Source: a virus. From it: 64,000 bases of DNA. A model generated the notes under the pieces. It saw nothing but the letters and a program-made list of their open reading frames with translations. It ran no database searches and was not told the origin of the DNA. The stretch is from IMG/VR virus record IMGVR_UViG_3300045988_074841, one strand, 5' to 3'. The position numbers were made by a program, and so were the translations under genes. Below, piece after piece: positions 1 through 59,993 of the stretch (position 1 is the first letter of the stretch; every line of letters starts with the position of its first letter).

Positions 1-3000
1 CCAACTCAGAATAACGATGAGTATGAAGTTCATCCTACAAGTAATGATAGCATTGCAAATCTTACAACTAATGAAGATTTGTTTGCTAATTCTAATATTG
101 CTACTCAAGATAACGTAGGTATAACTTCTTATCCTATTGTTAGACTTACTGGTAATAATTTTGAAGTTGTTAGTCAAGGTAAACTAGGAATTGAAGATGT
201 AAAAGAAGAAGAAACTTCACAGCAAACATCTTCTACGGGGGGTCTAGAACAAACTGAACCAGTAGAATCTCAAGCAGCAACTGAACCTATTCCTGAAGTA
301 GAAGAGACTACTCCTGAAGTTGAAGAACCTAAAGTTCCTGATTTTATGGGTAATGCTTCTGACACTAAAGTCATTAGAGATGTTATTACTGAATTAAAAA
401 CTACTCCTGATTTAGATTTAGATGCTAAAGCCAAGAGTATTCTTGATGATTATGTAGCTAAAGGATATAGTGAAACTGAAACTAAAAAACAAATAGATAG
501 TGCTTTTAGACGTATTCGTAAGAGACAAGAAAAACTTATGAATAAAGAAAGTACTGTTGCTTCTGTTTATTTTAGTAGTTTTGACCAAGAAGAACGTAAT
601 GCCAAATCTAAAAATGGTAAAGCTGTAGTATTTGATGATTCTTATAAAAAAGCTGTTAGTGACCTTCTTGATGTATACGCTAAAGATGCTGAACTTCCAC
701 AAATTAATGGTAAGTATTATGGTAATCTTATGAACCTTATGGATTATATTAAGTCTGCTTATGATGATTATTCTATGGCTGACTTTATGTTTAATAGTTT
801 GTCTGCTTATCTTAATACTCCTGAAGGTCAAGCTAAATTTAATATTACTGATGCCAATGATGTTAGTAATCCTGTTGCTTTCTTAAATAACTTCCATAAA
901 TCTCAAGCTGAAAGAGATGCTGCTCTTTCTAATGGAACTGTTCATCAAGTTAATATGAATCTTTCAGATTTTGGAACTGATGAATATATGAAAGAAAGTT
1001 ATGCTGAACAAGTTAAACTTAAAAATGGCGATAAACTTACTATAGAAAGAGTTACTACAAGTAAAGGTACTAGTCGTTTAGGTATCAAATCTAACGGTAA
1101 ACTTGTTGGTAGTATATCAATTCCTTCTACAGGAGAAAGAGGAGAATATGTTCAAAAGAATGATGGACTTATTTATCATATAGATAAAGCTGATGGTTCT
1201 AAAGATGGAGCACTTAAACAAGTTCTTAAAGATATAGCTAGAAGTAAAACTCCTGAGCATGAAAAACTTAATGAAATTATTCATAAAGCTGCTTTTGATA
1301 AGTTTAACGCTGAACAGCTAGTTAATGAATTTAAGAGTAATCCTATTGTTCAAGATATGGTTAAGAATCATATGATTAATTTTGATGGAACTGGTCCTGA
1401 ATATGAAGTTGCTCTTAATGGTCTTGCTAAACTTTGGAGATATAACTATAAAGTTCTTACCGAAGGAAGGGTTAATAAGTTTACTGGTGCAGTAGTTGCT
1501 AATTCTATTGATAAATGGTTTGATACTCTCCGTGAAAGTTATAATGAAACTAGTAAATTAGATAACAATCCAAACATTGATATTGTAGCTAGTGATGTAT
1601 TTGAAGGTGAGCTTATTCGTAGTAATGATGGTACTTTTAAAAGTGATGCTGAAACTTCTCTACCTATTCAATTAGCTATCGCTAAAGATACTAAGTTTGA
1701 AATTGCTGCCAAATCTACTACTGGTGAATTTATTAATGGTATTGGAAGTAATAAGTTTCTTGTTAGTGTTGGTCGAACTTATGTTACTGTTCCTCGTAGT
1801 AACGGTACTGTAGATATTGTAAATGCTTATCCAGTGAGTTGGACAGGTGCTACATATTATACAAAAGATGACAAACAACAACAAGTTGAGACAGGTAAAG
1901 ACTTTAAGCAGCTTCAAAATGCTATAATTACTCAAATTAAAGATAGACTTGCTTCTATTAATGATGGTGATTTTGCTGAAAATAGAAATAACTTTATTGA
2001 TTTTATTGATAATCTTCTTAATATCAATAAAAATCCTATTTTCCTTAGTAAAGAACTATCTGTATTTAGAACTGCAAATATTCTTGGAATTAACTTTGGT
2101 AATAAGAATAATCAACTTCTTTTCTATAGAGATAAGAATGGTGATGGTGTAGGTCAAATAATTAATAAAGTTGATGGTAAACCTAATTATATTTCTTACA
2201 ATAGTGATTTATCTGCTGTAAGCGATAGACTTATTGAAGGAATAAAAAGTCTCAATTTCAATATTAACTTTGCTGTTTTAAAGTCTGATAATAATCATAA
2301 TATTCCTCTTCAAGGTATTACTAGTAGAACTACTGACGGTAAGTTTAAAATTACTATTCCTGAATATAAAGGGAAAAATGGTGTAAATCTTACTTATGAT
2401 AGTTTTAAAGATTTTATTCAACAAAACAATCTTCTTAGAGTTAATATGGCTCAAGAAAACGGTAGTAATATTAGAAGAACTGCTATTAATAAACAAGGAG
2501 CTAATGCTAGATTTAGTTTTCAAGTAACAAATAAACAAGAAAGCCGCCCCGTAGAAGATGTTAGTGATAGTTATATTTCTAAAGCTGATGAAATTAAATC
2601 CATTGTAACATCTGATTCTACAGATAAAGGTTTTGAAGTTGCTAGTGCTCTTTTATTAGATGATACATCTAAAGAGAAACTAAATAGTATTAAAAGTGAT
2701 AGTTCTTTACGTAAACTTTTAGCTAAAGATATTATCTTTGACGAAGAATTTATGAGTAAAGAACATGCACAAGCTAATGCTGTTTGGAGCAAAACTAAAG
2801 GTGGTAAAGTTGTTATTGGTCAGAAATTCTTAGATATGATTAATAGTAAGAAACCTGGTGAAAAAGGTAGAGCTATTAGAACTTTGATGCACGAAAATCT
2901 TCATGGTTATATTGAAGATATGGCTAATAATAAACGTCATCCTAATGCGGTTGCTAATCTTAGAAATAGAATGCAAGATATTTATGATGATTTTGCTACT

Positions 3001-3708
3001 GCTATTAATCAAGATATTAATGATTTAAAAGCAGGAAATATTGATGAGATTAAACAACGTAGACATATTCAAGATAAAGCTACTCTTGAAAAGATTAGTG
3101 AGTGGCTTAATAATGTTAATACTTTTACTGCTGAAAGTTATGCTACTCGTGAGAATCCTCAAGATGCTCTAGAAGAATTTATTGTTGAATCTCTTACCAA
3201 TGTTGATTTAATGAATTATCTTAATCAAGTTGACGCTGATGGTGGAGTAGTTAAAGGCAATACTATTTGGCAGAAAATACTCAAGTTTATTGGTGACTTG
3301 TTTGGTATTAATATTCGTCCTAATAGTCTTCGTGCTAAACAAATGGAAGCTCTTGGTGAAATATTTAAGAATAATCAAGAAGCTGAAGTTAAAGCTGAAG
3401 AAAAAGAAGAAGAAGTTACTCAACCAACAACATCTTCTACGGGGCGTATAGAAGAAGTTGAAACAGAAACAGTTGCTGATAATACTAATAGTGTTATAGA
3501 TAATGATGATGTTGGAAATGCTAATGAGGTGTTTGATATTAAGGATGAAGATGTTGATGCTGATGATGAATATGATGCTGATGAAAGTACTAGTGAAGAA
3601 GTAGCTTTCAATTCATTCAACTCAGCAATCGAATCTCTTCCGATGTCGGAACGTGCCAAATTTGCCTCTCTCGTTAGCTCTGCTGCGATTTCGATGTCTT
3701 GCAAATAG
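1..3708 (+). CDS. large virion/cargo-like protein, 5-prime partial (>1235 aa), HExxH zincin-like motif (HENLH, nt 2890-2904) and strongly acidic C-terminal tail
   Basis: Reading frame of listed ORF 79..3708 stays open back to nt 1, so the TTG at 79 is not the real start and the gene continues upstream of the window. Coding composition is uniform. It lies directly upstream of the giant RNAP gene, as cargo genes do in crAss-like phages. Confidence 0.6.
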   Translation, partial: PTQNNDEYEVHPTSNDSIANLTTNEDLFANSNIATQDNVGITSYPIVRLTGNNFEVVSQGKLGIEDVKEEETSQQTSSTGGLEQTEPVESQAATEPIPEVEETTPEVEEPKVPDFMGNASDTKVIRDVITELKTTPDLDLDAKAKSILDDYVAKGYSETETKKQIDSAFRRIRKRQEKLMNKESTVASVYFSSFDQEERNAKSKNGKAVVFDDSYKKAVSDLLDVYAKDAELPQINGKYYGNLMNLMDYIKSAYDDYSMADFMFNSLSAYLNTPEGQAKFNITDANDVSNPVAFLNNFHKSQAERDAALSNGTVHQVNMNLSDFGTDEYMKESYAEQVKLKNGDKLTIERVTTSKGTSRLGIKSNGKLVGSISIPSTGERGEYVQKNDGLIYHIDKADGSKDGALKQVLKDIARSKTPEHEKLNEIIHKAAFDKFNAEQLVNEFKSNPIVQDMVKNHMINFDGTGPEYEVALNGLAKLWRYNYKVLTEGRVNKFTGAVVANSIDKWFDTLRESYNETSKLDNNPNIDIVASDVFEGELIRSNDGTFKSDAETSLPIQLAIAKDTKFEIAAKSTTGEFINGIGSNKFLVSVGRTYVTVPRSNGTVDIVNAYPVSWTGATYYTKDDKQQQVETGKDFKQLQNAIITQIKDRLASINDGDFAENRNNFIDFIDNLLNINKNPIFLSKELSVFRTANILGINFGNKNNQLLFYRDKNGDGVGQIINKVDGKPNYISYNSDLSAVSDRLIEGIKSLNFNINFAVLKSDNNHNIPLQGITSRTTDGKFKITIPEYKGKNGVNLTYDSFKDFIQQNNLLRVNMAQENGSNIRRTAINKQGANARFSFQVTNKQESRPVEDVSDSYISKADEIKSIVTSDSTDKGFEVASALLLDDTSKEKLNSIKSDSSLRKLLAKDIIFDEEFMSKEHAQANAVWSKTKGGKVVIGQKFLDMINSKKPGEKGRAIRTLMHENLHGYIEDMANNKRHPNAVANLRNRMQDIYDDFATAINQDINDLKAGNIDEIKQRRHIQDKATLEKISEWLNNVNTFTAESYATRENPQDALEEFIVESLTNVDLMNYLNQVDADGGVVKGNTIWQKILKFIGDLFGINIRPNSLRAKQMEALGEIFKNNQEAEVKAEEKEEEVTQPTTSSTGRIEEVETETVADNTNSVIDNDDVGNANEVFDIKDEDVDADDEYDADESTSEEVAFNSFNSAIESLPMSERAKFASLVSSAAISMSCK
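229..245 (+). repeat. GC-rich motif copy TCTTCTACGGGGGGTCT (forward), in-frame in cargo gene (TSSTGGLEQ)
   Basis: direct reading of sequence. Confidence 0.8.
2544..2560 (-). repeat. GC-rich motif copy CCGCCCCGTAGAAGATG (reverse), in-frame in cargo gene (SRPVEDV)
   Basis: direct reading of sequence. Confidence 0.8.
3431..3446 (+). repeat. GC-rich motif copy CATCTTCTACGGGGCG (forward), in-frame in cargo gene (TSSTGRIEE)
   Basis: direct reading of sequence. Confidence 0.8.
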
Positions 3709-3800: not shown

Positions 3801-6800
3801 ATGGCTTGTAATTTTAAAACAACAAGTGCTGGCACAAGCATTAAACGTAAGGTTGGAGCAAATAATGCTCGTTTTGTAGCGTTAATTAGTCTTATTAGTA
3901 ATCCTGAAACTGGAGGTTTTACTGATGAGTTTGTTAAGTATTATCAGAAAGTAAATCATACTGATAATATTCCTAGTGTTGATAATTCCGAAAGAGGAGT
4001 TATCGCTAAAACTGCTATCCGTTATTATAATAGTATTCACTTTGATGTTAATGCTCAAAGTACAGGTACTTATTATGATAAGGATGTAGATGCTTTCGGT
4101 TATAGTGATAGTCATGCAAAGGTATATGCTATTACTAGAGCAATTCCTAATATTATGCGTAGTATGTATGTTAGTGATATTAGAAGTGGAGAAATTGTTG
4201 ACAAGGATTCAATTCTTGGCGATTTAATTAAACGTACAAAAGTTAGGATAACTAAGGATGTTGCTGCTAATTATCTTAAAGCTATTGGTAAACCTGCAAC
4301 TAATGTTGAAGTTAATAAGATAGCTGATGCTCTTCTTAATAATAATGAAACTTATTATAAGAAAGATGAACTTATACTTGCTATAACTAAAGCTTTTGAC
4401 AAGAATGGTGATGTTCAAGTTCAAAATACTTTTGCTATTTATAAAGATATATTTAAAGATACTACTGGTAAAGATTTCTTTAATAGAGTTATTATTGCTG
4501 ACCCTATTATTGGTAATCTAAAATATAGCGATGAAACTGAATCTAGTCTTGCTGAAGCTTATGCTGAAGATTTTGATTCAGTAGATGATTCTTCTTATAA
4601 TAATAACGAAGATGAAGATGTACTTACTGTAGGTGATAGACAAGATAATACTTGGAATGATCATAGTGGTCTTGGTTCTAGTTATATGAAAGGTTTTGAC
4701 CTTGATATTCGTCTTAGTCTTTCTATGATACCTAAACTTACTAGTAATACTGTTGATACTAAGACTTTAAAGTCTGGTAAAGTAAAGGATGTTTACGATT
4801 ATGATAAAAACAATCCTACTGGTAATGTAGATTATATTGACGTAAAAGATATTATTAGTACTCTTAGTGCTAAGAAAGATGTTTCTAATCTTAATACTTT
4901 TATTGATAGTGTAAAAGAAGCTAGTAATATTCCTGGTATGGAAGGTCTTATTAAACTTTATAAAGACCTTACTTCTGATTTAGATTATGCTGCTCGTCTT
5001 TATACTCAATTCAAAACTGTAATTAACAAATATGAAACTCGTATTGCTGATGAGAATACAGCTATGAATAAGAGTAATAAGAATAGTAATGCTCAGCAAG
5101 TTCATGCTCTTAGTTTCCTTAATGATGCTAAGTTTACTCATATAAATACTGATTCTGATATTACCAATAAACTTGCTAATGAAGTAGATGAAACTATTGT
5201 AGAATATACTCAAGCTCTTGCTGCTGGCGATGAGTTTGCTTTAGACCAAGCTAAACTTTATAATACTATTGTTGATAGAATTGCTTCTCGCATTAAAGAT
5301 TATTATCCTAGTGCAGATAAAGCTTCTATTGATAATTATGTTCGTCTTGCTAATAATGGTGAAGTTGCTACCAATATGCGTTATCTTACTGATAGTCTCA
5401 GAAAGATAGCTAAAGCTTCTGATGCTACTACTTCTCAGTATACTGAAAATCGTGATGCTATTAGCGGTATTAACAAAGAAATTAGGAAACTTCAAACTAA
5501 AATTGACGCTCTCAACGAAGCTGGGGAACATAAAGGTATAGATAAAATCAATGAAGAAATAGATAAACTTGTTAGTCAAAGAGATAATATTCGATTTAGT
5601 GATTATCGTTCTCAAGATAGTATTACTCAGAGTATTGCTTTATCTGATAAACTTTATCCTTATTCTTCTGTTAAAGTTGAACTTAATTCTCGTAATGGTT
5701 TGGGTAATCTTCAATCTGATATTATCAATAGTTCCATGATTACTTATCTTCTTAAAGTACTCAATAGTCCTAAGACTACTACTGATGAATTAGGTAATAC
5801 CGCTCCTGAGTCTCTTGTTAACTTTGCTAAGTTTAAGTTTAAGAACAATCAATATAATCTTAGTAATATTCTTATTGAGACTAGAGAAAATGGTAAGATT
5901 GTAAATTATGGTCTCTTTTATTATGATGCTGACAAACAGAAATATGGTGTTACTAATTATGCTTCTGGTTTACTTAACGTTGCATTATTTAATGGAGCTG
6001 TAAAAACTGATGAAGGTACAGGTATTACTTATGCTCAAATGAGTAAAGGCGATTATGTTTATACTGCTTTTGCTAATTATTTTAATAGCGATAAAAATAT
6101 TGATGCTGATAGAGTAACTAATAGCATTCCTCTTGCTAATTACTTTATGAGAACTCCTTCTGATGCTCCTAAAACATTTGTAGTTCGTGCTCCACGTTAT
6201 CATATAACTAAGAGTAATCCAATTAGAACTGTAACAAATGCTGCTGATGTAGATAATTATATTAAGAATTATGTTGCAGAGCATATTGCTAGTATGTCTG
6301 AAGCTGCATTTAATCAAGCTAATCCTAGAGCTAAATTTATTCAACTTGAAGATAATCGTAGTGATCGTGCTCAAATTACTAGAGATTTAACTGATAATAA
6401 TATTACTCGTTCTGTATATGAGAATGAGATTATTCGTAATGATGGTAAAACTGCAACTATTGGTTATCAATTTACTGATGAAGAAGGTAATGTAAATAAA
6501 TATATTATTACCGGTTCTATTCGCCACGTAAAAGGTATGAATAAATTTGTTATTGAGAATGGTAAAGCTACTATTCTTGATAATAATGAAATGAGAGATA
6601 ATCTTCGTCCTATGATATATGATAAGTATCGTAAACAAGCTTATCGTAACGGTAGAATTGGTGATGTTCAAGTTGATTATAAAGTTAATAGAGAACATCC
6701 TATTTATAAACAATTTAGAAAGATATTTAATCAAGAGTTGACTAATATGGCTGAGGCTATTAATATGATATTCTTGACTGGCGATGATGGTGTTATTCAG

Positions 6801-9800
6801 CGTGAAGCTGATGGTAAACCTAAGTTTAATCCTAATAATGCTTTTGGATTAGATAAAGAATCTGCTCGTAGACTTTATGCTAATTATCAAACTAAAAAAG
6901 ATAAATATCTTGATTCTAATTATGGTTTAGTTGGAAATATGTTCCATAGTGATAAGTTCACTATTACTGATTATAAGACTGGTAAAATTCGTAATTATGG
7001 TCAAGAACTTCTTGATGATTATTTTGATAGTCTGTATAATGGTAGTAAAGGTGGCTTTATTCATTTTGGTTATGAGAATGGTAAGATTAAACTTAATCAT
7101 ACTAAAGACCAAGCTAAAGCTATTGATAACAAAATAGCAGAATTTATTAGTGATTATATTTATAGTTCTGCTATACGTATGGATGAATTTAAAAATCTTG
7201 ATGTAGCTGGACTTATTAATGATGATAATGTTGCTGACTTTGCTCTTAATTATCGTCTTGCTTATAATTATTTTGATGATTTATTTGAAGGTGATGATAA
7301 GTTTTATAAGTCTTCTCAAGACTTCTTGAAACGTGCTAAGGAAGGTCAAGCTAGTGGTACTCCTTATAGTACTTTCAATATTTATCAAGATGAGAATATG
7401 ATGTTGACAGACTTAAAGAAGATGAGTTATCTTAATAGTCAAGCTATTCAAGATAAACTTAATAGTCTTGGTCTTCATGTTACTCAACGTCCTGGTTTTG
7501 TTGGTATTACTATTAAGAATACTGTAAGAACTTCTCATGAAGCTTCTCAAAATGGTCCTGTTGTTCATGAACTTGCTCGTGTTTATATGAAACATGACCC
7601 TGAACTTACAGAAGATGAAGCTATTGCTAAAGCAAATAAGCATATGGAAGGTTATCAAAATACTACTGTAAACGATGCTCAATCTTATATTACTTTTGAA
7701 GAATGGATTCGTCGTGTTGCAGGTAGAGGTCAACTTAATAAATATATGCCTCTTATTGAGCGTATTATGGATAGAAGTAAACCTCTTAGAGTAGATGATA
7801 TTAAAACTTTTGTTCAAGTACAAAAGAACTTCTATTATGATATGACTTATAATGATAAGATTAATACTTATGCTCCTCGTCAAATTAAAAATGCTGAACT
7901 TGTTCTTGTACCTAGATTTATTGAAGGTACTGACCTTGAGAAAGTATACAATCTTATGAAAGACCATGGTATTGACCAACTTAATACAGAAGAGACTTCT
8001 AAAGCTGGTAAAGCTGGAGTTCTTACTTTATTTGATGAAGAAACTGGTGAAGTTACTGATACTCATATTCAAGATTTTAATAACCATGTAGAAGATTATA
8101 AAGAGACTTATTCTTATAATTTCCTTTATACTCAGCAAGAAACTCCTCAACACATGAATGCAGAAAATAAAGCTGCTATTCAAATTATGAAGAAGATTGT
8201 TGATAATATTCCTGATACTGGAACTATTGGAGAAGTTAAGAAAGAGTTTTTTAAACTTTATGTTGCTAATATTAAAGATAGTTTCAATAGTCTTGTTAAG
8301 GAACTTAATATTCCTACAAATGAAGATGGTTCTATTAAACTCGATGCTAATGGAAATATTGAAGGACTTGATATGAAACTGTTCTTCAATAAGCTTCGTA
8401 AAGAATGTCTTCGTCAAGGTCTTGATAGTAATATTCTAGAGTTCTTTACTCTTAATGAAGATAGTCCTTATACTGAACTTGGAAGAGCTAATACTGTTAT
8501 GCCTACATATATGACTAATATGATGAGTAAAGCTCAGAATGTTTGTCAGTCTATGTTTAATAATGCTATTACTCGTCAAAAGTTGCCTGGTTTTCATGCT
8601 GCTCAGGTAACTAATGTAGGTTATTCAAAGCATCTTCGTTATCATCCTGATGGTGGACGTTACATTGAAGTTCTTCTTCCTAAGAGCAACTTTGGTTTTG
8701 CTAAAAATGAAGATGGTACTTATAAAGAACCTGATGAAATTAGAGACAAAGATGGAAATCTTGTAGGTGGACTTCTTTATCAACTTCAAAGAGCTAAACT
8801 TGATACAATTATTGGTTATCGTATTCCTACTGAAGGTAAGCAATCTATATGTGCTATGAAAGTAGTTGGATTTACAGATGATGCTCAAGGTTCAACTATA
8901 GTTGTTCCTGATGATTGGGTTGCTCAAACTGGTTCTGACTTTGATATTGATTCTGTATATGGTATTCAACATAATACATATATAGATAAAGATGGAGATA
9001 TTCAAAAAGTTGCTTATAAAGAATCATTTGGTAAATTATATGACGATTATGTAAAAGAACAACTTAATGATGAAGCTAAAGATAAACTAGAAGAAGCTGT
9101 TAAAAATGGAGTTAACGAATCTACTGCTTTAGCTAATGCTGCACAAGAGGGTGGACTTCTTAGTCGTGAAGAATTTAGTAAAGCTAATAGTATTGAAGAA
9201 AAGAATAGTCGTCAAGCTCGTAACAATCGTATACTTGATGATATGCTTCGTATTCTTCAATCTGATGAAGCTTTTGAAGAGAATACTGGTCAATCTCAAT
9301 TTGAAGATATTATCAATGCACGTGATAATATTATGAATGATGTAGTTAAGAGTGTTCGTAATGGTCGTAGTTGTTATGATTTTATTGACCAAGCTGAATA
9401 TCAAGAAGATGTTATGAGTGGTGCTAAACTTAAAGCATTTAGTGTTACTCGTGATACCTTTGTTTCTATTTGCAACAAAGTTCAACCAACTATTGATAAA
9501 AATTATGCTATTAGTGCTAGATATAAAGCTACTCCAAAACAAGCTGAGGTTTTAGCTAAACGTTTTGGAGAAGATAATGTTATTTACAAAGATGGTTATG
9601 TTACAATTAGTCATACTATGATTGGTTGGTCACACGATAATCATAATGTAGATGATGCTATTCTTACTGCTTATAGTTCTGAGACTACAGCTCATATTCT
9701 TGATGCTGTAAAAAAAGGTGCTGTACCTAATGTAAATGAGTTTACTTTTGCAGTATATAAAACTTTCCCTGATGTAGGTAGTAATTATAAGACTGGTGTT

Positions 9801-12800
9801 GCATTTATGATGCACCCTGCTGTAACTCGTATAGTTAATGCTTATAATAAAGGTAAATCTGTTTATAGTGAAGATTCTGCTCAACCTATAGTTGATGCTC
9901 TTAAAGAAGTAGCTGAAGAACTCGATGTTGATAGTAGTTCTTTATATTCAGGTAAAATGGTAGTTGAAGCTATTAATGATAAACTTGGTACAAATTATAG
10001 TTTTATTAAAAACAACAATATTGTTCTTGATGAAGAGCAATTAGCTAGTGATGTAAAGAATGCAAACAATGTTTCTCTTGCTCGTGAAGTAGAGATTCTT
10101 ATGGCTTACAATGATATTAATCGTTTAGCTGATGTAATTCAGAAAACTGTAAGAGTTTGTAATCCTGATAAGTTTGGAGCTAAACAAACTATATTTGCTA
10201 CTAATGAAGTATTTGAAACTATTAAAGATATAATTAATAGTAAACAAGCTAAAGTACTTAGTAAGAATGATATTCCTTTCCTTGAAAGTATTTATCCTGG
10301 ACTTATTAAAGATGGTGTTGTAGATAAAGATAATTATGTAAAAGATACTCATGAATCTGCTTATCCTTCTCTTAATGCTTTCTTAAAGTATGCTTCAGTT
10401 ACTAGTACTGTAGTTAATAGCATGCTTTTTGAAACTCAAAATTCTGCTTTTGTAACTACTATTAAAGCTCTTAGTAAAATGCTTCCTACTCCTCGTAAAC
10501 TTACTGAGAAAGAATATAATGATTATGAGAAGTATGTTATTGGTGCTGCTTATAATAATGCTGACGGAATTAGATTAGGTTATACTATCAACTCTTCTAC
10601 GGGGCGTCTTGAATCAACTAAAACAAGTGATTTACAAGAGCGTCTTCGTATTTATGGATTTAGTGGTAGTCCAGTATTTCATTTTGATGTTGAAGATATT
10701 ACTGAACCAACTCAAGATGAAATTGATGCTTGGTCTAAACTTACTCCTGCTCAAAAAGTTGCTTGGTTACAAAGTAAAGCAGAAGATGGTGGTATATTTA
10801 GTAAACTTAAAGTTGACCTTCAAGATAATTATCGTGTTGGTAATAAAGAATGTGCTGCTCAATCTATTCGTTTTAATGATGATAATGTAGATACTGAAAC
10901 TGCTTACAATCTTTTTGAAACTGCTACTAAGAGTCAGAATCCTCTTGTTAAACTTGCAGCTATAGACCTTATTAAATATGCGTTTGTAGTTGAAGGTTTC
11001 AAGATGCGTCGTAATGGTATTAATAAGATTATTAAGAATAGTACTCTTCGTGATGATACTTTGTTTGCTAATCAAGATGGAGAACCTACTAGTCTTCTTA
11101 GTCAAATTGATGCTAATTTTAAGCATATTACTTATGATGATTATCGTGATGATTATTTAAGAAGTCATTCTGATAATGGTATGGTTCCAAAAAGAACTGT
11201 AAAGAAGAAAAGAGTAGGTAAAATTTGGGTTAATGAACTTAGTGCTCCTGATGGAGTTATAACTCTTAATGTTCCTTCTCGTAGAAATGATATTACAGAA
11301 GCAGATATTAATGATGAATTTGCTGCTACTAAAACTATTGCAGAAGAGACGGAAATCCGCCCCGTAGAAGATGTAGTAGATAATAAACTTCAAGTTGTTC
11401 AAGATAATACTACTGCTCCAGATGATACTAAACTTGCTGTTAAGTATGGTATTTATAATGCTTGGACTGATAGAGTTAATCCTTATGTAAAACTTACTTT
11501 TAAGAATCGTGGTGTTAATACTACGAATCTTTATAAGACTGTTCGTCATGGTGATATAATATTTGCTTATCCTGTTAGTATGCTTGAGGAAAACGAACAT
11601 GGTATTGTTTCTGTTAATCAAGCTAATAATACTCTTTATAGTGAGATGTATTATAGAACTATTATTGATAATAAACTTCAAGGTAATCAACTTACTAAAG
11701 AAGAAGCAGATAAACTTCGTAAAGAATACGCCAATGAACGAGCTATTTCTTCTAAAAGTAGAGTTAATACTGGTTTTGATATTAATAAAGATAGAACTAC
11801 TGGCGATATAGGTGGTGCTCGTGATGCTTATAGTAAAATTATTAATCTTATTAAGAATGATGCTAAAGGTATTCAAATTATAAACAATAGGTATCTTTAT
11901 AATCGTGTTAGTGAAGGATTTGGTAATTTCCAAATTATTCATGATGTAATTGATGGTAATGAAGTTACTAAGAAAATTGCTTTTGCTAAAGAAACAAAAG
12001 TAATATTTGATTCTGAAGGTAAAGTAATTCCTTATCCTGTTAAAGTTATTCAGATTATTCCTTCTACTAATGATAAAGAAAGTACATCTGTTGAATATAA
12101 TTTTGACATGTTTACTGATATTAATCGTAGAGCACATGAAGGTGATGTCAATGCTTATCGTGAAGTTCAGTTTATGAATAATAATGGTTTTGAGAATGTT
12201 AGTACTGATTATACAAATATGTCTCCTAAACTTTATGAAGCTATTGATAGATTCACTAGTGCTACAGCTAAGAAACTTATCAGTGATGCTGACCAATTCT
12301 ATAAAAAAGAAGATGGAACTTATGCTTCTATATTTGCTCCTGAAACTATAGAAATGATTCGTAATAATCCTAGTGAGCAAAGACGTTTTCAAAAGTTACT
12401 TCTTGATACAGATAGTATTATTAATAAATATGGTACTATATTTGATGTTGTAGTTGACGAAAATGAGAATCCTGAAGTAATTGATTTTATTAATCATATT
12501 AAGAAAACTATTGGAGATTTACGTAACAAACTTAATCTTAGTACTCTTAATGAAAGATTTGCTAGAGAAGTTGTTGCTAAATGGTCTAATGACCCTAATA
12601 TTCAAAATGGTTTAGTTGATATTTGTAATGGTTATCATGCTGTTACTTGGTGTGATGCTTGGATTGGAGATTTACAAGATACTGGTAATAGTCTTATTCA
12701 AAATATTAGCAAACATATAGTTGATGATATTAGTGCTAAAGATATGCAAGCTGCTAAAGATGCTCGTGAATTTGAAAAAGCTATTAAAGCTCTAGGTCAC

Positions 12801-15800
12801 ATAGATTGGGATAAACTTGTTGATAAGAACGGTAAACTTATTAGAGATTATACTGACAAATTTGTTGAAGATTTAGATACTCTTAGAAATAAAGTAGATG
12901 AAGCTCGTAAAGATGTCATTAATAATCCTATGGCTTATCTTAAAGCTAAGCATGAATATGATGCTTTCAAGCTTGCTCATCTTAATCAACAATTTAAGGA
13001 TGAGTATTATAAAGCTATGTATGATAATGATGATTACATGCTTAATACTGCTCCTACTATTTTTGCTGAATATACAAAACTTAGAGAGCAAATTAGAAAT
13101 ATTAATCGTCTTCGTATTAGTGGTGTTCTTAGTCCTGAAAATGAAGAAGAATATCGTAAACTTAGAAGAAGTATTAATCAACTTGAGTCTACAATAAATT
13201 TTGATGATGGTACTGAGAAACCTATTTATGATGAAACTAATCCTATTCCAGGTACTAAAGGTTTCGATGAAGAAGGTAAACCTATAATTGTAGATAAGGC
13301 TAAATATGATGAAGCTGTATTAAACTCTCAAGGAGCTGCTATGAAACTTAATCAATATCTCAAACGCAAACGTGATATTAATGAAGAATATAATGATACT
13401 CAAGTTAAGGATAGTTTTGAAGAAGAACTTGATAAGAGACTTGATATTATTAAGCGAGCTGAGAAACGTGATGCTTTTGGTAATAAACAAGTTTCTGATG
13501 AAGTTCTTGCTAATGACGAAAAGTATCAAAGAGCTAAAGAATGGCTTGAGCAAAATGCTACTTGGCATGTAGACCCTAAAGTTAGTGATGAAATTGCTGT
13601 AGCTTATGGTGTTCTTTCTAAAGGTAGAGTACAAAAGAATAATCAAATAACTTATAAGGCTAAACTTATCAAAATTAAACTTGCTAATGGTGAGAAAGTT
13701 TATGATAGTAAAGGTCGTATTCGTGGCGATATATTTACTGAAGAAGAACAAGAAGCTATAAGAAAAGATGAAGCTGGTCGTTATAATAATACTATTTATT
13801 CTGCTGGTAATGAACAAATATTAATTAATAATGCTCCTGAACAAAAGCAAGCTCTTCCTGCTGTAGTACAAAGAATGCTCACTTCTAATAGCAAAGAAGG
13901 TAAAGCTAACGTTGAATATCTTAAATTAGTTAATGAAATTAATGAAATTCTTCGTCCTTATTATGATACTACTAAGAAAGAAGTTAATACTATAACTGAT
14001 AGACATCAAATTAGTATTGAAGAACTTCATAAACTTGCTGATTTGTATGAGAAACTTCGTAATACAAAAAAGACTATAGTTAATGAAGATATACCTGGTA
14101 ATGGTTCTGCTGTTGGTAGTTTTATTCGTAAGTTTATGCATACTGAATATAGTTCTAAGTTTGATATTGAATACAGTAAAGCTAAAACTATTGGTGGTGA
14201 ATATCTTAAAGCTTGGGAAGATGCTAATATGGAATATGATTTTGAATATGATGAAAAAGGTCATATTGTTAAAGACTCAGATGGTAATTATGTATATGAT
14301 AAATCAGTTCGTCTTCCTAATCGTTTTCTTTATGGTACTCTTACTCTTAAAGATGAGTTCTATACTGGTATGAAGAATCAGAAAGTAGCTAAAGACTTGC
14401 GTAAAGAAGCAGAGATTAAAACTAAAGCTCTTGCTACTATTAACGAATATCTTGAAACTACTACAACTCCTTATTATAGTGATGCTATGGCTGAGGCTAG
14501 AGCTAAAGGTAAAGAAGAGTTTGATAAGTGGTTTACTCGTAATCATGTATGGAATGTTTATACTCATAAGTTTGACCCAATAGGTATTTGGCAAAAGACT
14601 AGTATTAAACCTAATTACGCTAATGGTACTTGGGCTGCTAATTATAATCAGTTAGATATTGTTCCTAAAGAAGAATATCGTAATCCTGATTATAAAGAGA
14701 ATACTACTCAAGCTGAGAATTTTAAACGTGGTATAAACGATGAAAAATATGTTAACAATGTAACTCTTAGTGACAATGAAAAACAAGCTAAGAAACTTAT
14801 TGAAACAACATTAGATAAGATTGTTAGAGATAAAACTAGTCGTCGTATTATTAGTCAAGGTTTTATTCCTATTACTGCAAAAGAAGCTGACCATGACTTT
14901 AAATGGTTTGGTAAACAAATAGCTGAATTTGCTGGTTGGAATGCTAATATTAGCTCTGTTGGTAAGAATAGTCTTCATGCTAATATGAATTATTCTACTG
15001 ATAAAACTCCAGTGCTTCCTATGATTGGTAGAGAATTTACTAATAAAAATAGTGAAGACATTAATAAAATTAAAGCTGCTGAGCCAAAGAGAGATCAATA
15101 TACTACTGATGAAGAGTATAATAAAGCTATGACTGAACATAAAGCTAGACTTGATGCTGCTGAAAAGAATAATAAAGCAATACATCAATCTCTTGTTAAT
15201 AGAGATTTTGTTTCTAGTATTAGTCAGTTTATTAGACTTGCTGGTCATCAAAATGCTGTTCAAGATAATAAGTATCTCTTCTATTATGGTCAAAATATGA
15301 TTAAAGCTACTCCTGTACTTGATGATAATATAGGTTTTAGTAATCTCAGAAAAGATATTAATAGAAGTACTACTGATGTTACTCGTTATGCTGAAAAGAC
15401 TTATGATGAAAGACTTTATGGTCAGTTTACTAATTGGGGTAATAGACTTATCTACGATAGATATAAACTTCCTAATAATAAACTTACCAAAGCTGCTAAT
15501 ATTGCACAAAGTCTTACTAGTGCTAAATTTATGATGTTAAATATTACTGGTGCTATTGGTAACGTTACTGTTGGTCGTAGTGGTATTTTTGCTGAACATA
15601 TAGCTAAAGCTTATTTTAGTACTTCTGCTTGGAATAAAGCTAAAACTATGTGGTATGGTGCTTCTTTATCTTTCCTAAGAGGAATGACTAGAGAAGATAG
15701 TACTAGTCTTGCTGATGCTATTGTTAAATTTATGAATGTTGTAGATTTCGATGAAGTACTTGGTAGACCTAGTGGTAGTTTTAAAGCTAGTGATGCCATT

Positions 15801-17174: not shown

Positions 17175-17176
17175 AC

Positions 17177-17192
17177 CGCCCCGTAAAAGAGT
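17177..17192 (-). repeat. GC-rich motif variant CCGCCCCGTAAAAGAG (reverse), 3 nt after vRNAP stop codon
   Basis: direct reading of sequence. Confidence 0.7.
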
Positions 17193-17228
17193 TGATAATG
17201 TGAATTCTACTAATAAGAATTAAATAAG

Positions 17229-27708: not shown

Positions 27709-27830
27709 ATTATTAAGTTATTTAATATTTTAATTTTGTTTCTAACGAATTGAATTTAGTTATATGAATAACTAATAAGCGAGCATAATAAAGCCGCTCA
27801 CACATGAAGTAAAGTGGAAATCTGCCACAT

Positions 27831-28218: not shown

Positions 28219-28226
28219 TGTTATAT

Positions 28227-42602: not shown

Positions 42603-42697
42603 AACTCTATTATTTTAATTATTAATATTAGAAGTTCTGCTCGGTTTCGCACCATAAGCCGTATTACTACACTTAGCAGAACTTAAAGTATTACATT

Positions 42698-44819: not shown

Positions 44820-45040
44820 AATACTCTTATGTTTTAATTATTCGTATAATATATTATTACTAAGTTCATCATAGCTAGCATCATCACCAACCATGATTTC
44901 ACCAAATAAGTCATAGTCATCAATATCGTGACTAGTACAGAATGCGTCAATATCTTGAGCATTATAATCAAATTCATTATCTTGTATCATAACTATTATT
45001 ATTAATTATAATGCAAAGATAATGAATTTAATCTATCATA

Positions 45041-45056
45041 TCTTCTACGGGGCGGC
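45041..45056 (+). repeat. GC-rich motif copy TCTTCTACGGGGCGGC, intergenic, 17 nt after stop of - gene 45073..45261
   Basis: direct reading of sequence. Confidence 0.8.
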
Positions 45057-45072
45057 TAGATTAACTTATATT

Positions 45073-49391: not shown

Positions 49392-49928
49392 ATGGTTGAT
49401 TTAAAAGTTAATTATCTTGGTCTTAATCAGACCTTTCGTATGCCTACTAGTATGAGTGAAATTAACATGAATGTAATTTCTGATTATGTTAAGCATGTTA
49501 ATGTTAGTAAGGATTATGCTCTTATTGCAGTTGTATTTAAAGAGCGTCCTATTACTATTGTAAGTGTTAGTAAGCAGAATAAGAACGCAAGTGTAAGCGG
49601 TGTTGCTGTTATGATTAAGAGTAATACTGATGATGAGTTTATTAAAGACATTAAACTTGGTGAAACTATAGTTATTTCTCCTAGTGATATTGCTATGGGA
49701 CATCATGTTAATTCTCCTGCTAATCCTCTTACTCCTGGTTTCTTACTTAATCTTCTTCAAACTAATGCTGATTTAAATAAGAAACTTATGGGTATTGGAG
49801 TTCCTACTTATTTCGTAGATTTTAAGATTGTTCCAGTTTGTAATATTCATGGTTCTGTAGGAAAGTATATTCCTGTTAGTCAATATTATATTGCTCCTGA
49901 TGCTGGAGAAACTGATATGGGTAAGTAA
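49392..49928 (+). CDS. hypothetical protein (178 aa), first gene of the rightward late block
   Basis: ORF. Confidence 0.45.
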   Translation: MVDLKVNYLGLNQTFRMPTSMSEINMNVISDYVKHVNVSKDYALIAVVFKERPITIVSVSKQNKNASVSGVAVMIKSNTDDEFIKDIKLGETIVISPSDIAMGHHVNSPANPLTPGFLLNLLQTNADLNKKLMGIGVPTYFVDFKIVPVCNIHGSVGKYIPVSQYYIAPDAGETDMGK

Positions 49929-49940
49929 TTCTACATTGAA

Positions 49941-49959
49941 CATCTTCTACGGGGAGGCT
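49941..49959 (+). repeat. GC-rich motif copy CATCTTCTACGGGGAGGCT, intergenic, 13 nt after stop of + gene 49392..49928
   Basis: direct reading of sequence. Confidence 0.8.
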
Positions 49960-50022
49960 TAAAAAGCTAAGGGAGTTTATGCTCCCAAAGCTTCATATTA
50001 TAGTGTTAATAATATTACTAAT

Positions 50023-52275: not shown

Positions 52276-52884
52276 ATGAATGAAAAATTATTTAATAAAG
52301 CAAGTAAAGCTGATTTCAGCAAAATACTCATCAATAAAGGATATGCCTATTTTAATAAAGGTAAGTATAATCTTAACATTATTGGTATTAGAAATGCTGG
52401 CAATAATGTTACTAATAAATTTGATGATGTTATTGTAGTAGAATATATTGATATGTATGGTATTAAATCTAGAAATATATTTGCTGCTACTACTGAGCCT
52501 GGTATTACTAGTATGACTAAACCTGTAAGTTATAAAGGTTGTGCTATACTTGTTCCTGGTCAATATCGTTCTGCTTTGAAACTTGGTTATCATAAAGGTA
52601 AGTATGAAGCTATTGTTCAATATAAACCTGTAAAAGTTTATAGAGATAATAATAAAGATGCTGTTTACGATTTTAATCCAAAGACTATAGAAGAAGGTAC
52701 ATTTGGTATCAATATTCATAAAGCTGGAACACATTCTACTCAAGTTGATAATTGGTCTGCTGGTTGTCAAGTTCTTGCTAATAAAGAAGATTTTGATACT
52801 CTTATGAAACTTGCTCATAGACAAATTAGTCAAGGATATGGTAAACTATTTACTTATACTTTACTTAATGAGGAGGATTTATAA
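52276..52884 (+). CDS. L,D-transpeptidase-fold (YkuD-like) cell-wall hydrolase, candidate endolysin
   Basis: Active-site pattern INIHKAGTHSTQVDNWSAGCQVL matches YkuD IHGT...S-x-GC(I/V). It lies immediately upstream of the spanin-like pair. Confidence 0.45.
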   Translation: MNEKLFNKASKADFSKILINKGYAYFNKGKYNLNIIGIRNAGNNVTNKFDDVIVVEYIDMYGIKSRNIFAATTEPGITSMTKPVSYKGCAILVPGQYRSALKLGYHKGKYEAIVQYKPVKVYRDNNKDAVYDFNPKTIEEGTFGINIHKAGTHSTQVDNWSAGCQVLANKEDFDTLMKLAHRQISQGYGKLFTYTLLNEEDL

Positions 52885-53144
52885 TGAGTAATTTAATTAA
52901 AGAAATTATTAAAGGTGCAGCAATGTTTTTTGTTTTTGGCATTAGTGCTATTGTAATTATTAGTCTTATAGATAATAAAAAGACTTATACTATTGTTGAA
53001 CAAAATGTTGAAATACAGAAGCATAATGATAGTTTAAGAATTGAAGTTGATAATTTAGATAGTATTAAAAATGCAAAAGTTATTGAAGTTAAAACTCTTG
53101 ATAATGATAGTACTATTAAGTTGTTCTATAAACTCATCAAGTAA
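52884..53144 (+). CDS. i-spanin-like or holin-like protein (single N-terminal TM helix followed by a helical periplasmic segment)
   Basis: TM at residues 12-28 (AAMFFVFGISAIVIISL). Its start shares ATGA with the upstream stop. Confidence 0.4.
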   Translation: MSNLIKEIIKGAAMFFVFGISAIVIISLIDNKKTYTIVEQNVEIQKHNDSLRIEVDNLDSIKNAKVIEVKTLDNDSTIKLFYKLIK

Positions 53145-53427
53145 ATCATTAACATCTTCTACGGGGAGGATAGAACAAGATAGTGTAACTATAGCGATTA
53201 GTGATATTCGTAAAGCTAATGCTAAACTAATAGAATTAAATTATGAAAAGGATATTAATAAGAATCTTCGACAAATTATTAGAAATGATAGTATTCTTGC
53301 AGAACAAGCTAGACAAAGATATATACTATTGGATAGGTCATGTAAGAAAGTAACAAAACAACGTAATGTTGCTTGTTGTAGTGCTGCTGGTGCTATTATA
53401 TTACTAATTTTAAGTTTAATAAAATGA
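53071..53427 (+). CDS. o-spanin-like outer-membrane lipoprotein (signal peptide with lipobox LLSC)
   Basis: MQKLLKLKLLIMIVLLSC has a basic n-region, a hydrophobic core and L-L-S-C. The gene starts inside the 3-prime end of the preceding gene in another frame (overlapped spanin architecture). Confidence 0.45.
   Translation: MQKLLKLKLLIMIVLLSCSINSSSKSLTSSTGRIEQDSVTIAISDIRKANAKLIELNYEKDINKNLRQIIRNDSILAEQARQRYILLDRSCKKVTKQRNVACCSAAGAIILLILSLIK
53153..53169 (+). repeat. GC-rich motif copy CATCTTCTACGGGGAGG, 9 nt after stop of 52884..53144 and in-frame in the o-spanin-like gene (TSSTGRIEQ)
   Basis: direct reading of sequence. Confidence 0.8.
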
Positions 53428-58628: not shown

Positions 58629-59993
58629 ATGTTTGTATTTCGTAATAGTATTGGGTTCGGTCAGCATCATCGTTTGATGGTTGAACTTGATAATATTGAT
58701 TTTGGAAATGGCGGTGGTAATGGTAGTGGTACTAACGCCAATAATAACCAAGGTAACGGAGGCGGCACTGATAATAATAACGGTGGTGGTAATGGCTCTG
58801 GTGATAATAAAGATGGTGACGGTAAAGAGGGTGATGGAAATGATAAAGATAATCCTGAGCCTGATAATGCCAATGATAATCCTGATAATAAGGATAATAA
58901 CAAAGACAATCCATCCAACTCTTCTACGGGGGGTCTTGAGGTAGGTACAAATGTCGAGTTTGAAGGCAAAAAGTATACTGTTGCTGAAAATGGAGACCTT
59001 GTAGATGCAGATGGTAAAGTTTTTAAAGAAGCTAAAGATGTTGACGAGTGGATTAAATCACTCGAAGTTGATGAACCTGGAGCTGAGGTAAATATTGAAA
59101 ATATTCGTAAAGCTATGAATATTGATATTACTGATGAAAATGGTAATCCAGTTGAATTTACTGATGACATTGAAGGTATTAAGAGTTACATTAATTCTGC
59201 TATTGAACTTAAATCAAATGAAGTAGCTGTTGCTGCTGTTAATAAAGTATTTGTTGACAATCCTATTCTCAAGCAGTTTGTTGATTATCTTACTGTAAAT
59301 GGTGGTGATTCTCGTGGTTTTGGTGAACGTCCTGACCGTTCAGGTATTACTGTTGATGAGAAGTCTGAAGAGCAACAGATTGCTATTATTAAAGCTGCTG
59401 CTAAAGAATTTGGTAATGCTTCTCTTAATGATAATTACATTAAGTATCTTAAAGATTCTGGTGGTCTTTATGATGAAGCTAAAGTTCAACTTGCTAACCT
59501 TCAAAATGCTGATAAACAACGTGATGAAGATGAAGCTAAACAAGCTGAAGCTTATCGTCAAAAACAAGAAGCTGAAACTATTGCTTATTGGAAAGGTATT
59601 AAAGATACTATTGATAAACGTGAAATTGGAGGATATAAACTTCCTGAATCTCTTGTTAAAGAAGTTAATGGACAGAAAGTTACTGTTACTCCAAACGATT
59701 TCTATGATTATCTTTCTTGTGGTATTAAAGATGAAAATGGTAATATTGCTACTGCTTATGAGCGTGCTCTTGCTAATCAATCTCCAGAGGAAGCTACTAA
59801 TCAAGAATTACTTAGTGCTTGGTTAATGTTCACAGGTGGAACTTATAAAGACCTTGTTAAAATGGCTATTAATAATGAGCAGGTTAAAACTTTAAAGCTT
59901 GTTGCCAAAGGAAATAAAGGTCATGGTGCTGTACGAATTACTAAGCCACAAACTAATAATAATAAAGCTATTGATAATATTCAATTTAGCTAA
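58629..59993 (+). CDS. capsid-module protein with N-terminal Gly/Asn/Asp low-complexity region and coiled-coil (scaffold- or decoration-like)
   Basis: ORF located between the portal and MCP genes. The N-terminal 100 aa is a GNGGG/DN-rich disordered segment. Central and C-terminal regions are helical (QLANLQNADKQRDEDEAKQAEAYRQKQEAE). Confidence 0.45.
   Translation: MFVFRNSIGFGQHHRLMVELDNIDFGNGGGNGSGTNANNNQGNGGGTDNNNGGGNGSGDNKDGDGKEGDGNDKDNPEPDNANDNPDNKDNNKDNPSNSSTGGLEVGTNVEFEGKKYTVAENGDLVDADGKVFKEAKDVDEWIKSLEVDEPGAEVNIENIRKAMNIDITDENGNPVEFTDDIEGIKSYINSAIELKSNEVAVAAVNKVFVDNPILKQFVDYLTVNGGDSRGFGERPDRSGITVDEKSEEQQIAIIKAAAKEFGNASLNDNYIKYLKDSGGLYDEAKVQLANLQNADKQRDEDEAKQAEAYRQKQEAETIAYWKGIKDTIDKREIGGYKLPESLVKEVNGQKVTVTPNDFYDYLSCGIKDENGNIATAYERALANQSPEEATNQELLSAWLMFTGGTYKDLVKMAINNEQVKTLKLVAKGNKGHGAVRITKPQTNNNKAIDNIQFS
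58919..58933 (+). repeat. GC-rich motif copy CTCTTCTACGGGGGG in-frame in 58629..59993 (NSSTGGLEV)
   Basis: direct reading of sequence. Confidence 0.8.

Follow-up and report, generated by a model that had tools for sequence, protein, structure and literature searches.

The GC-rich word and its setting in the window

The window analysed here (64 kb) comes from an Intestiviridae crAss-like phage and contains 18 copies of a GC-rich, asymmetric word of about 24 nt, CAYAYCTTYTACGGGGVGGNTNKA, where fewer than 0.4 would be expected. A first-pass annotation had put 18 copies far above chance, and this was confirmed, as TACGGGG occurs 18 times in the window against 0.35 expected and each occurrence is a motif copy. 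Similarly, CATCTTCTACGGGG with up to two mismatches yields 14 matches (0.11 expected), and ACGGGGVGG is found 13 times (0.01 expected). The annotated coordinates were accurate to within a few bases, apart from a copy placed at 38641 that is about 10 nt off; the word described there is present but was drawn too short at 15-20 nt, since the conserved block spans about 24-27 nt. An invariant G-rich core, TACGGGG-V-GG, adjoins a G-free pyrimidine tract, and the word lacks dyad symmetry, its best-conserved part being asymmetric. Two hits with one mismatch, at 31580 and 55349, were set aside as chance because their flanks are missing, and a likeness to the 16S rRNA 341F region and the T7 class II terminator was judged coincidental. 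Some copies are flanked by TTCTA...TAGAA.

The copies are distributed over both strands and over genes of unrelated function; core starts were scored with TCTACGGGG/TTTACGGGG. The large ORF at 79-3708 carries two sense copies on the plus strand, at 225-248 (core 232-240, SSTGGLE) and 3429-3452 (core 3436, SSTGRIE), and an antisense copy on the minus strand at 2539-2562 (core 2547, RPVED) that has an orthologous site in cr8_1. The giant vRNAP-like gene at 3801-17174 holds a sense copy at 10589-10612 (plus, core 10596, SSTGRLE), which is missing at the matching position of cr8_1-like genomes, and an antisense copy at 11352-11375 (minus, core 11360, RPVED). Intergenic, 4 nt past the stop of this gene, is a TTT variant at 17171-17194 (minus, core 17179) that is kept in cr8_1 and many contigs. 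Two intergenic copies 57 nt apart form a convergent pair, with the left half at 20306-20329 (plus, core 20313) and the right half, a TTT variant, at 20362-20385 (minus, core 20370), 6-8 nt past the stop of the gene at 20387-20671. The copy at 24646-24669 (minus, core 24654) is sense in the gene at 24384-25034 (PSTGRVE) and identical at the cr8_1 site, and that at 27827-27850 (plus, core 27834) is intergenic and antisense to the gene at 27862-28218, 19 nt past its stop. Within the primase gene (30308-31534, minus), a sense copy at 30689-30712 (minus, core 30697) is read as IFYGADG, and the SNF2-helicase gene (34606-36021) contains an antisense TTT variant at 35500-35523 (plus, core 35507, RPVKE). 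The UDG-like gene at 38281-38850 carries a sense copy at 38645-38668 (minus, core 38653, SSTGGLE; orthologous site in cr8_1), and a TTT variant at 42697-42720 (minus, core 42705) overlaps the end of the gene at 42698-43042, whose stop codon is the word's own TAG. Two more intergenic copies lie at 45037-45060 (plus, core 45044), kept in distant relatives, and at 49939-49962 (plus, core 49946), 15-17 nt past the stop of the gene at 49392-49928; a separate GC hairpin follows the latter. The ORF at 53071-53427 holds a sense copy at 53151-53174 (plus, core 53158, SSTGRIE; orthologous site in cr8_1) directly past the stop of the ORF at 52884-53144. Finally, the scaffold-like gene at 58629-59993 contains a sense copy at 58916-58939 (plus, core 58923, SSTGGLE), which is homologous in crAssphage ZA and degenerate in cr8_1.

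Apart from the primase copy, sense copies encode S-(S/P)-T-G-(R/G)-x-E and antisense copies RPV(E/K). The pattern of gene context and frame had been recognized previously and is largely correct, but the single antisense frame is forced by stops, because the other two frames hold TAG or TAA within the word; the blocked frame is used by 0 of 31 antisense sites. Frame regularity is largely avoidance of stop codons, and the recurrent S-T-G and R-P-V-E peptides should not be taken as protein motifs. With 39 intragenic sites in sense and 31 in antisense, orientation is independent of the direction of transcription, which upholds the earlier rejection of a simple promoter. Promoters for a T7-like phage RNAP, or of the sigma-70-like crAss middle type, were rejected, as intragenic copies take both orientations and intergenic ones tend to lie close to the preceding stop. 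A study of phi14:2 reported no early motif and sigma-70-like middle promoters (10.1101/2020.03.07.982082), and the word is unlike the described crAss middle promoter. Spacers are enriched, containing 33% of the sites as compared to 8-10% non-coding DNA. That all intergenic copies follow a stop codon by 0-30 nt proved to be a tendency and not a rule: the distance is 65 nt for site 20313, and in other genomes some intergenic copies are closer to the following start.

The nearness of intergenic copies to stops, the TTCTA...TAGAA flanks on some copies and the S-T-G peptide common to several host proteins would be expected of an element acting at the RNA or peptide level (a structured RNA, a terminator or a loop peptide), or of a homology linker for modular recombination. 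This explanation is very improbable and already contradicted by the tests that were run. When the 18 copies were folded as DNA, 16 did no better than shuffles (z near 0) and no common fold or hairpin emerged, and an Rfam search of the window at the gathering threshold returned only a tRNA at 17332-17402, with nothing at the copies; an intrinsic terminator or known RNA family was rejected on these grounds. Moreover, half of the copies are antisense, and orthologs read the same DNA in different frames. Change-points in the identity of related genomes do not concentrate at the sites (P = 0.39-0.68), which argues against the gene-boundary recombination linker proposed in the first-pass annotation.

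Conservation of the sites among crAss-like phages

Members of this word family, each with lineage-specific flanks, are present at 27-30 copies per genome in cr8_1, the cultured crAss002 and the prototypical crAssphage, as compared to 0.4-0.7 expected. About 12 of the 18 window sites have cr8_1 orthologs, and site positions are kept even where flank identity has fallen to 65-70%. Many sites are also kept in IMG/VR relatives, where the estimate of core invariance is inflated because an exact match to the word was the criterion for retrieving those fragments. Across subfamilies 2-3 sites are kept. The primase and SNF2-helicase genes carry theirs at homologous codons despite 25-50% protein identity: both sites are homologous in cr8_1, crAssphage ZA and crAss002, and crAss002 reads the primase site in another frame. 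When these two proteins are aligned with those of the motif-less outgroup cr127_1, the motif peptide faces residues and not a gap. Because homologous codons are read in different frames, and because, set against this outgroup, the peptides do not count as insertions, selection acts on the DNA. Among 24 close contigs the sites are stable, and the only indel is a 14-nt deletion of site 45044 in the cr8_1 lineage. Turnover between subfamilies has affected most sites, with their number, spacing and strand balance maintained; selection on these genome-wide properties despite site turnover is unusual for a virus.

These data bear directly on the idea, also raised in the first-pass annotation, that a selfish, miniature mobile element is at work, inserting in frame in genes and past stops. 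High GC content against an AT-rich background, in-frame placement in genes of unrelated function and enrichment in spacers all recall the GC clusters of yeast mitochondria and the Rickettsia palindromic elements, and one site does differ by an indel. However, those elements are mobile, palindromic and insertion-polymorphic, whereas the phage word is none of these. The copies show no terminal repeats, target duplication or hairpin of a mobile element, the peptides suspected of being lineage-specific insertions are not insertions, the one indel is a loss, and positions are conserved in diverged flanks and across subfamilies. Together with the regular per-strand spacing described below and a constant copy number, these tests contradict a mobile origin, which we consider scarcely credible. 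Searches for the word and its variants, and for nicks or motifs in crAss phages, found no description in the searchable literature. The word looks like an undescribed genome-wide signal for a phage DNA enzyme, not a jumping element.

Spacing of the sites on each strand

On each strand the sites form a separate array of even spacing, with about one site per 6-7 kb and a coefficient of variation of 0.32-0.45 as compared to 0.9 for random placement; the tests of spacing are not wholly independent, given the common ancestry of the three genomes. The arrays are balanced, with plus/minus counts of 14/13, 16/13 and 13/17 in these genomes and 10/8 in the window. Neighbours on the same strand are always at least 2 kb apart, whereas sites on opposite strands approach to 27 nt. 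Every one of the 20 pairs of neighbours separated by less than 1 kb is inverted, and among pairs closer than 150 nt, 7 are divergent and 2 convergent. Strand-specific regularity and lineage-specific flanks lend further support to a DNA-level recognition site for a phage protein, a reading offered at first pass and already supported by conservation across frames and subfamilies.

One protein of this kind would be an architectural, packaging or condensation factor, e.g. a phage HU/IHF-like protein, that binds irrespective of orientation, in which case the missing close same-strand copies would reflect selection against direct-repeat deletion. Constant copy number and even overall spacing are compatible with this, HU/IHF-like genes are a conserved feature of crass genomes, and direct 24-bp repeats are prone to deletion in a phage with RecT and an exonuclease. 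However, a 1-kb exclusion, the plausible range of slippage, fails to reproduce the per-strand regularity, and neither the uniformly inverted close pairs nor the asymmetry of the word is accounted for, so that we hold an architectural role to be quite improbable. Bacterial DNA uptake sequences offer a further comparison. The DUS of Neisseria and USS of Pasteurellaceae are 10-12 nt long (a 9-nt core plus flanks), occur in both orientations and in tolerated frames, are enriched after genes and sometimes form inverted pairs, and are spaced more evenly than random. They differ in serving self-recognition in bacterial transformation, where orientation is irrelevant, whereas a per-strand rule operates here in a lytic phage; an uptake sequence was rejected since close neighbours are all inverted and regularity holds per strand.

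Orientation would matter to an enzyme that tracks along DNA, and the word could be a polar signal for Chi-like control of a helicase-nuclease or for pausing or termination by the virion RNAP, with the two-strand arrays limiting enzyme travel in both directions. Orientation dependence, strand balance and even spacing would keep the way to the nearest site in the right orientation as short as possible from any entry point, and a RecD/Dda-like SF1 helicase and an exonuclease are among the phage's gene products. Because early crAss-like vRNAP transcripts have no common promoter motif (10.1101/2020.03.07.982082), curbing of stray transcription is conceivable. We nevertheless consider a tracking signal fairly improbable. 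The 39 sense sites in long essential genes imply that the word is no efficient terminator for the polymerase transcribing them. Chi (RecBCD/AddAB) and KOPS/SRS (FtsK/SpoIIIE) resemble the word in being polar and over-represented, with informative orientation and about one copy per few kb, but these are host words of 5-8 nt with a replichore bias, whereas the phage word is long, phage- and lineage-specific and strand-balanced. Chi is determined by the host, whereas the words differ from family to family among Bacteroides phages. A Chi-like host word was rejected given the block of about 24 nt, the lack of breakpoint enrichment and a search of 185,579 bacterial species genomes, in which a 16-nt pattern of the word gave only scattered singletons and no repeat.

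Possible nicking or priming, and a candidate primase

Strand-defined arrays are known from the nicked virion DNA of other phages. The nick sites of T5, phiKMV and tf have an over-represented asymmetric consensus, lie in coding and non-coding DNA and keep their positions among relatives; tf has 14 in 46 kb, about one per 3.3 kb, and the role of these sites is still unknown (PMC3517423, PMC11780129). Judged from sequence alone, the word is likewise over-represented, strand-defined and positionally conserved at a similar density, and at about 24 nt it is longer than their consensus of 7-19 nt. These are the closest precedents for supposing that the sites are nicks in packaged DNA, made by a phage nickase in the word-bearing strand and having no role in priming. 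A DNA ligase gene is present in the crass phages (28227-29426 in the window), and the divergence in the word's 5' shoulder is polar, which also fits a nick; it could alternatively reflect relaxed protein constraint in word-tolerating loops. However, all phage nick arrays known to us lie on one strand, whereas the word is equally frequent on the two strands, each with spacing of its own, and close opposite-strand pairs (27-120 nt) would weaken the duplex if cut. An HNH nickase gene adjoining a cr8_1 site was rejected as the reader because it is absent from the window, leaving no conserved nickase candidate; contig ends coincide with sites in 0 of 37 cases, a weak proxy for physical breaks; and nicking alone gives no obvious reason for even per-strand spacing. 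Nicks of this kind seem unlikely to us.

We tentatively favor a different reading, while granting it less than an even chance, in which the word marks polar, cis-acting sites at which DNA synthesis on the word-bearing strand would be begun, through priming or a nick, by an enzyme of the phage that co-evolves with them. Each strand would own the array formed by its copies; a phage-encoded enzyme would recognize the core beside its G-free pyrimidine tract and then begin a DNA transaction on the word-bearing strand. This would most likely be a synthesis start, by the phage DnaG/T7-type primase or from a site-specific nick, giving one start point per 6-7 kb of either strand whatever the fork direction. 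The putative reader is the primase encoded at 30308-31534 on the minus strand, which a fold search assigns to the DnaG/T7 gp4 type, and neither to the AEP nor to the HUH enzymes, and which has a zinc-less, ZBD-like N-terminal module. A RepB'/relaxase-like primase was rejected, as a PDB sequence-profile search was empty and the fold is of DnaG/T7 type; Pfam searches with ten replication-module proteins gave little information.

Sequence-specific starts have partial precedents. T7 gp4 primase recognizes 5'-GGGTC, TGGTC or GTGTC, and RSF1010 has the priming signals ssiA and ssiB on opposite strands. Both share with our proposal strand-specific synthesis starts at which a recognition element lies beside a template tract of restricted composition. 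However, T7 sites are 5 nt long and not in a spaced array, the ssi signals are hairpins used by an AEP-type primase once per strand at the origin, and neither forms a genome-wide array. Against priming, a trinucleotide normally suffices for DnaG-type primases, we know of no precedent for a site of at least 30 bits in lagging-strand priming, and with one start every 6-7 kb the sites are thinly spread for Okazaki priming. Against nicking, opposite-strand sites only 27-40 nt apart would be awkward if both were cut.

More speculatively, and with considerable doubt, the Intestiviridae including the prototypical crAssphage may rely for genome replication or processing on a hitherto unrecognized system of 'strand punctuation', in which a dedicated, co-evolving enzyme of the phage, possibly the zinc-less DnaG-type primase, starts synthesis or nicks only at about 14 fixed and evenly spaced 24-nt sites per strand. 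If true, initiation sites that are specified by sequence and arrayed genome-wide on both strands would be described for the first time in a virus. Among viruses of the human gut, crAss-like phages are the most abundant, and almost nothing is known about their replication, processing and packaging. The 24-nt word could serve as bait for DNA-affinity capture of its reader, and it defines about 28 exact positions per genome where nicks, primers and footprints could be sought, with crAss002 grown on Bacteroides xylanisolvens as a cultured model. The word and its lineage-specific flanks form a compact signature by which Intestiviridae contigs could be recognized and subtyped, and the sites should be left intact when these phages are recoded synthetically or engineered. 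An analogous system with a different word may operate in the Steigviridae, where CTTCTGGWG is a real word of 22-27 copies. Its spacing and orientation in DAC15 are not significant, and DAC15 and crAss001 have two of six aligned CTTCTGGWG sites in common.

A GC-rich word and its distribution

The first-pass annotation reported an over-represented GC-rich word in the window, and the counts bear this out. The heptamer TACGGGG occurs 18 times as compared to 0.35 expected, and all 18 occurrences are copies of the motif (10 on the plus strand and 8 on the minus strand). In scans of the window, CATCTTCTACGGGG was found 14 times with up to 2 mismatches (0.11 expected), and ACGGGGVGG was found 13 times (0.01 expected). 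The word is genuine and lies far above chance expectation. Its copies had been placed correctly to within a few bases and it is present as described, but it was drawn too short, as an in-register alignment of the window copies reveals a conserved block of ~24-27 nt (C.A.MA.ATCTTCTACGGGGVGK.T.GA). Folding identified no common secondary structure among the window copies, and an Rfam search of the window returned no family at the word. The word (e.g. TCTACGGGGAGGCTTAA at window 49946-49962) resembles, indels apart, the universally conserved 16S rRNA segment of primer 341F (CCTACGGGAGGCAGCAG), a likeness that is probably coincidental.

The window has a GC content of ~30% and derives from a crAss-like phage of the Intestiviridae, the phage family most abundant in the human gut. 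Its closest deposited relative, cr8_1 (Obtuvirinae, ~85% identity), carries ~28 copies of the variant ACATACCTTTTACGGGG[CG]GGCTAGAG. In crAss002 (Churivirinae), a phage cultured on Bacteroides xylanisolvens APCS1/XY whose terminase is 52% identical, there are 15 copies of CTCCTTTACGGGGGAA and ~12 of the TATGGGGGAA variant, and the prototypical crAssphage (Carjivirus, strain ZA) contains 17 copies of TCCATCCTCTACGGGGRGT and 13 of the CCTCCACGGGG variant; the flanks of the word vary as CATCTTC, CATACCTTT, CTCCTT or CCATCCTC, and as CGGCT, GGAA or RGT. Exact-word scans of IMG/VR returned >120 stretches each, in which crass-like contigs (~30% GC, 90-98 kb) hold several copies apiece and high-GC contigs hold single chance matches. 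Within these fragments, a set that is ascertainment-biased as it was retrieved by the word itself, 406 of 418 distinct TACGGGG heptamers share the context CAYAYCTTYTACGGGGVGGNTNKA, with hardly any G in the ten positions that precede the core. Four contigs with several copies and window-like sequence (89-96% identity) far exceed the ~95-kb crass genome length and may be concatenated or chimeric assemblies (3300045988_068777, 125.7 kb; _037651, 124.8 kb; _064312, 167.1 kb; 3300029413_000001, 222.1 kb). The word was not found in the genomes of crAss001 (Steigviridae) or cr127_1 (Crevaviridae). When one genome for each bacterial or archaeal species was scanned, only scattered singletons appeared, so the word is not a host repeat; its lineage specificity and absence from hosts likewise exclude a host-determined word. 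No variant of the word, nor any such array, was found described in the searchable literature, and the array appears to be undescribed so far in this phage family.

Positional conservation and gene context

Of the 18 window sites, approximately 12 have an ortholog in cr8_1, and it is at those very sites that the lineage-specific 5' difference is seen. Among IMG/VR relatives, sites are kept even at 65-70% flank identity. Between subfamilies, where sites were mapped by protein anchoring, the primase gene (30308-31534, minus strand) carries a site at homologous codons in the window (30697), cr8_1, ZA and crAss002, and the site in the SNF2-helicase gene (34606-36021; site 35507) is likewise shared by these four genomes and is antisense in each. 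The site at 58923 in the scaffold-like gene (58629-59993) is found at homologous codons in ZA. At the primase site the same DNA is read as IFYGADG in the window and, in another frame, as YPLRGN in crAss002. In cr127_1, a motif-less outgroup, the protein segments of the SNF2-helicase and primase that match the motif peptides are equal in length, indicating that the word arose within codons already present and was not inserted. The sole indel polymorphism observed, a 14-nt deletion at site 45044 in the cr8_1 lineage, is a loss, as more distant relatives keep the site. The proposal of a mobile or selfish element is refuted by this positional conservation, by the loss at 45044 and by the lack of insertion relative to the cr127_1 orthologs, a comparison that the first-pass annotation had itself suggested. 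Taken together, the alignments indicate that selection acts on the DNA and that the sites are old. Only 2-3 alignable sites are shared between subfamilies; individual sites turn over, while their number, spacing and strand balance are retained.

Across four genomes, 104 sites comprise 34 intergenic, 39 sense and 31 antisense copies, with an intergenic share of 33% as compared to 8-10% non-coding DNA (annotation of three of the genomes is ORF-based). The antisense copies and frame changes exclude an RNA or peptide element. The earlier observation that all antisense copies read RPVED holds as a pattern, and is explained by stop codons, as one antisense frame contains TAG/TAA and is never used. 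The placement of intergenic copies just after stop codons holds as a tendency (4-20 nt after the upstream stop codon in the window) but not as a rule, as paired copies in short spacers put one member near the next start. A small gene at 42698-43042 (minus strand), which ends in LLRGG, uses the word's own TAG as its stop codon, as does its cr8_1 ortholog. Downstream of several intergenic copies, within 5-25 nt, stands a distinct GC-rich hairpin, giving the order stop codon, word, terminator-like hairpin; examples are GGGAGTTTATGCTCCC at window 49963-49990 and ...GGAGCGAAGCG... in ZA (5965, 28308, 45084) and crAss002 (4214, 47844, 86212). In ZA, each of the two RepL-like 'plasmid replication initiation protein' genes (28730-29404 and 96778-97632) is immediately preceded by the word, at 28208 (minus)/28308 (plus) and at 96605 (plus), respectively. 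A tRNA gene (window 17332-17402, plus strand; Rfam 61.5 bits) lies between convergent gene blocks at the position of the cr8_1 tRNA-Gln, and a 490-aa ORF at 26079-27551 (phrog_7247, function not assigned) is not matched by any ORF at the same location in cr8_1.

Per-strand spacing and polar divergence

To describe the arrays, sites were defined by the regular expression [CT]{4}[CT]A[CT]GGGG, for which 0.3-0.7 matches are expected per genome. This family pattern occurs 27, 29, 30 and 18 times in cr8_1, crAss002, ZA and the window, respectively, in roughly equal numbers on the two strands. Orientation alternates more than expected by chance in cr8_1, crAss002 and ZA (permutation P = 0.0004, 0.0001 and 0.013, respectively) but not significantly in the window. 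In the Intestiviridae, neighbors in the same orientation are never <2 kb apart, whereas 20 of 78 neighbors in opposite orientation are <1 kb apart, some by merely 27-120 nt (same versus opposite, Fisher P = 0.002). Spacing within each strand is even, with a CV of 0.32-0.45 as compared to ~0.9 (P <= 0.006 in all eight strand sets), and the plus and minus arrays are otherwise nearly independent of one another; as the genomes are related, these spacing and orientation tests are not fully independent. A model with a 1-kb exclusion, the distance that might result from slippage of replication at direct repeats, fails to reproduce the per-strand spacing (P = 0.0000-0.012; combined ~1e-11), whereas the spacing is mostly reproduced when the excluded distance is 2-3.5 kb. 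A duplex-binding site that is blind to orientation would not predict this per-strand rule.

The sequence around the word is also polar. Among 24 close relatives, the core (0 to +14) has a mismatch rate of 0.02-0.03, a figure in which ascertainment inflates conservation, and the 30 positions 5' of it (-30 to -1 from TACGGGG) reach a rate of 0.11-0.15, as compared to 0.07-0.10 on the 3' side and a background of 0.04-0.06; the 5'/3' asymmetry is unaffected by ascertainment. Divergence of the 5' flank is ~2-3 times background over all 18 window sites, and small indels (2, 6 and 14 nt) cluster there. The 5' flank thus carries a polar mutational or turnover footprint. Identity change-points are not enriched at the sites, which speaks against the proposed gene-boundary recombination linker or hotspot, and no contig ends were found at the sites, a weak test.

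Candidate mechanisms and comparable words

The word does not match the described crAss promoters. After these exclusions, we infer that the word acts as a polar site, whose reader would be a phage enzyme that co-evolves with it and works on one strand. We favor a reading in which the enzyme would start DNA synthesis at the word, as forks moving in either direction would then require evenly distributed start points on each strand separately. With its invariant G-rich element next to a pyrimidine tract that lacks G, the word recalls primase sites such as those of T7 gp4, in which template of restricted composition borders the recognition element. The 5' divergence coincides with the stretch where a primer or repair tract would be expected. 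The main rival is that the word is nicked, either to prime synthesis or purely as a virion nick. To our knowledge, all phage nick-site arrays lie on a single strand, a feature that the word does not share. Primase signals, in turn, offer no precedent for such an array. The nick reading nonetheless has the best precedent, as in phages tf, phiKMV and T5 asymmetric words that are over-represented and conserved in position mark nick sites with no assigned function (PMC3517423, PMC11780129). Virion nicks were examined by native nanopore sequencing in phage Rembedalsseter (PMC11780129) and by denaturing gels with and without ligase in phage tf. An HNH gene beside a cr8_1 site was considered as a nickase candidate and rejected, as it is missing from the window; the window lacks this endonuclease gene and a small ORF between the DNA ligase and the next small gene (window 27862-29426, cr8_1 85628-86669).

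We rate the word as belonging among polar, over-represented genomic words. Nick-site arrays and primase signals are the most similar to it in working; Chi/KOPS share its polarity and density, and DUS/USS its frame tolerance and inverted pairs, but the word lacks the defining features of both groups.

Other crAss-like phages contain words of their own. The Steigviridae lack the TACGGGG word and have an over-represented 9-mer with a similar layout of pyrimidine tract and G-run: CTTCTGGAG occurs 27 times in crAss001 (NC_049977; 75-fold over expectation), with alternating orientation (P = 0.003-0.004), and CTTCTGGTG occurs 22 times in DAC15 (MT074136; 52-fold), where spacing and orientation are not significant. 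Two of six aligned 9-mer sites are shared between these phages. In cr127_1 (NC_055886), ten copies of a different GC-rich word of ~30 nt (aatGGCCACAAGGGCGAGAGGTGTTCCGAAAt) are mostly intergenic and often form inverted pairs 170-550 nt apart (e.g. 11356, 11910, 28696, 28871, 42038 and 42232). The DAC15 annotation records exact 1842-bp direct terminal repeats (1-1842 and 97653-99494), so defined genome ends exist in some Crassvirales at least.
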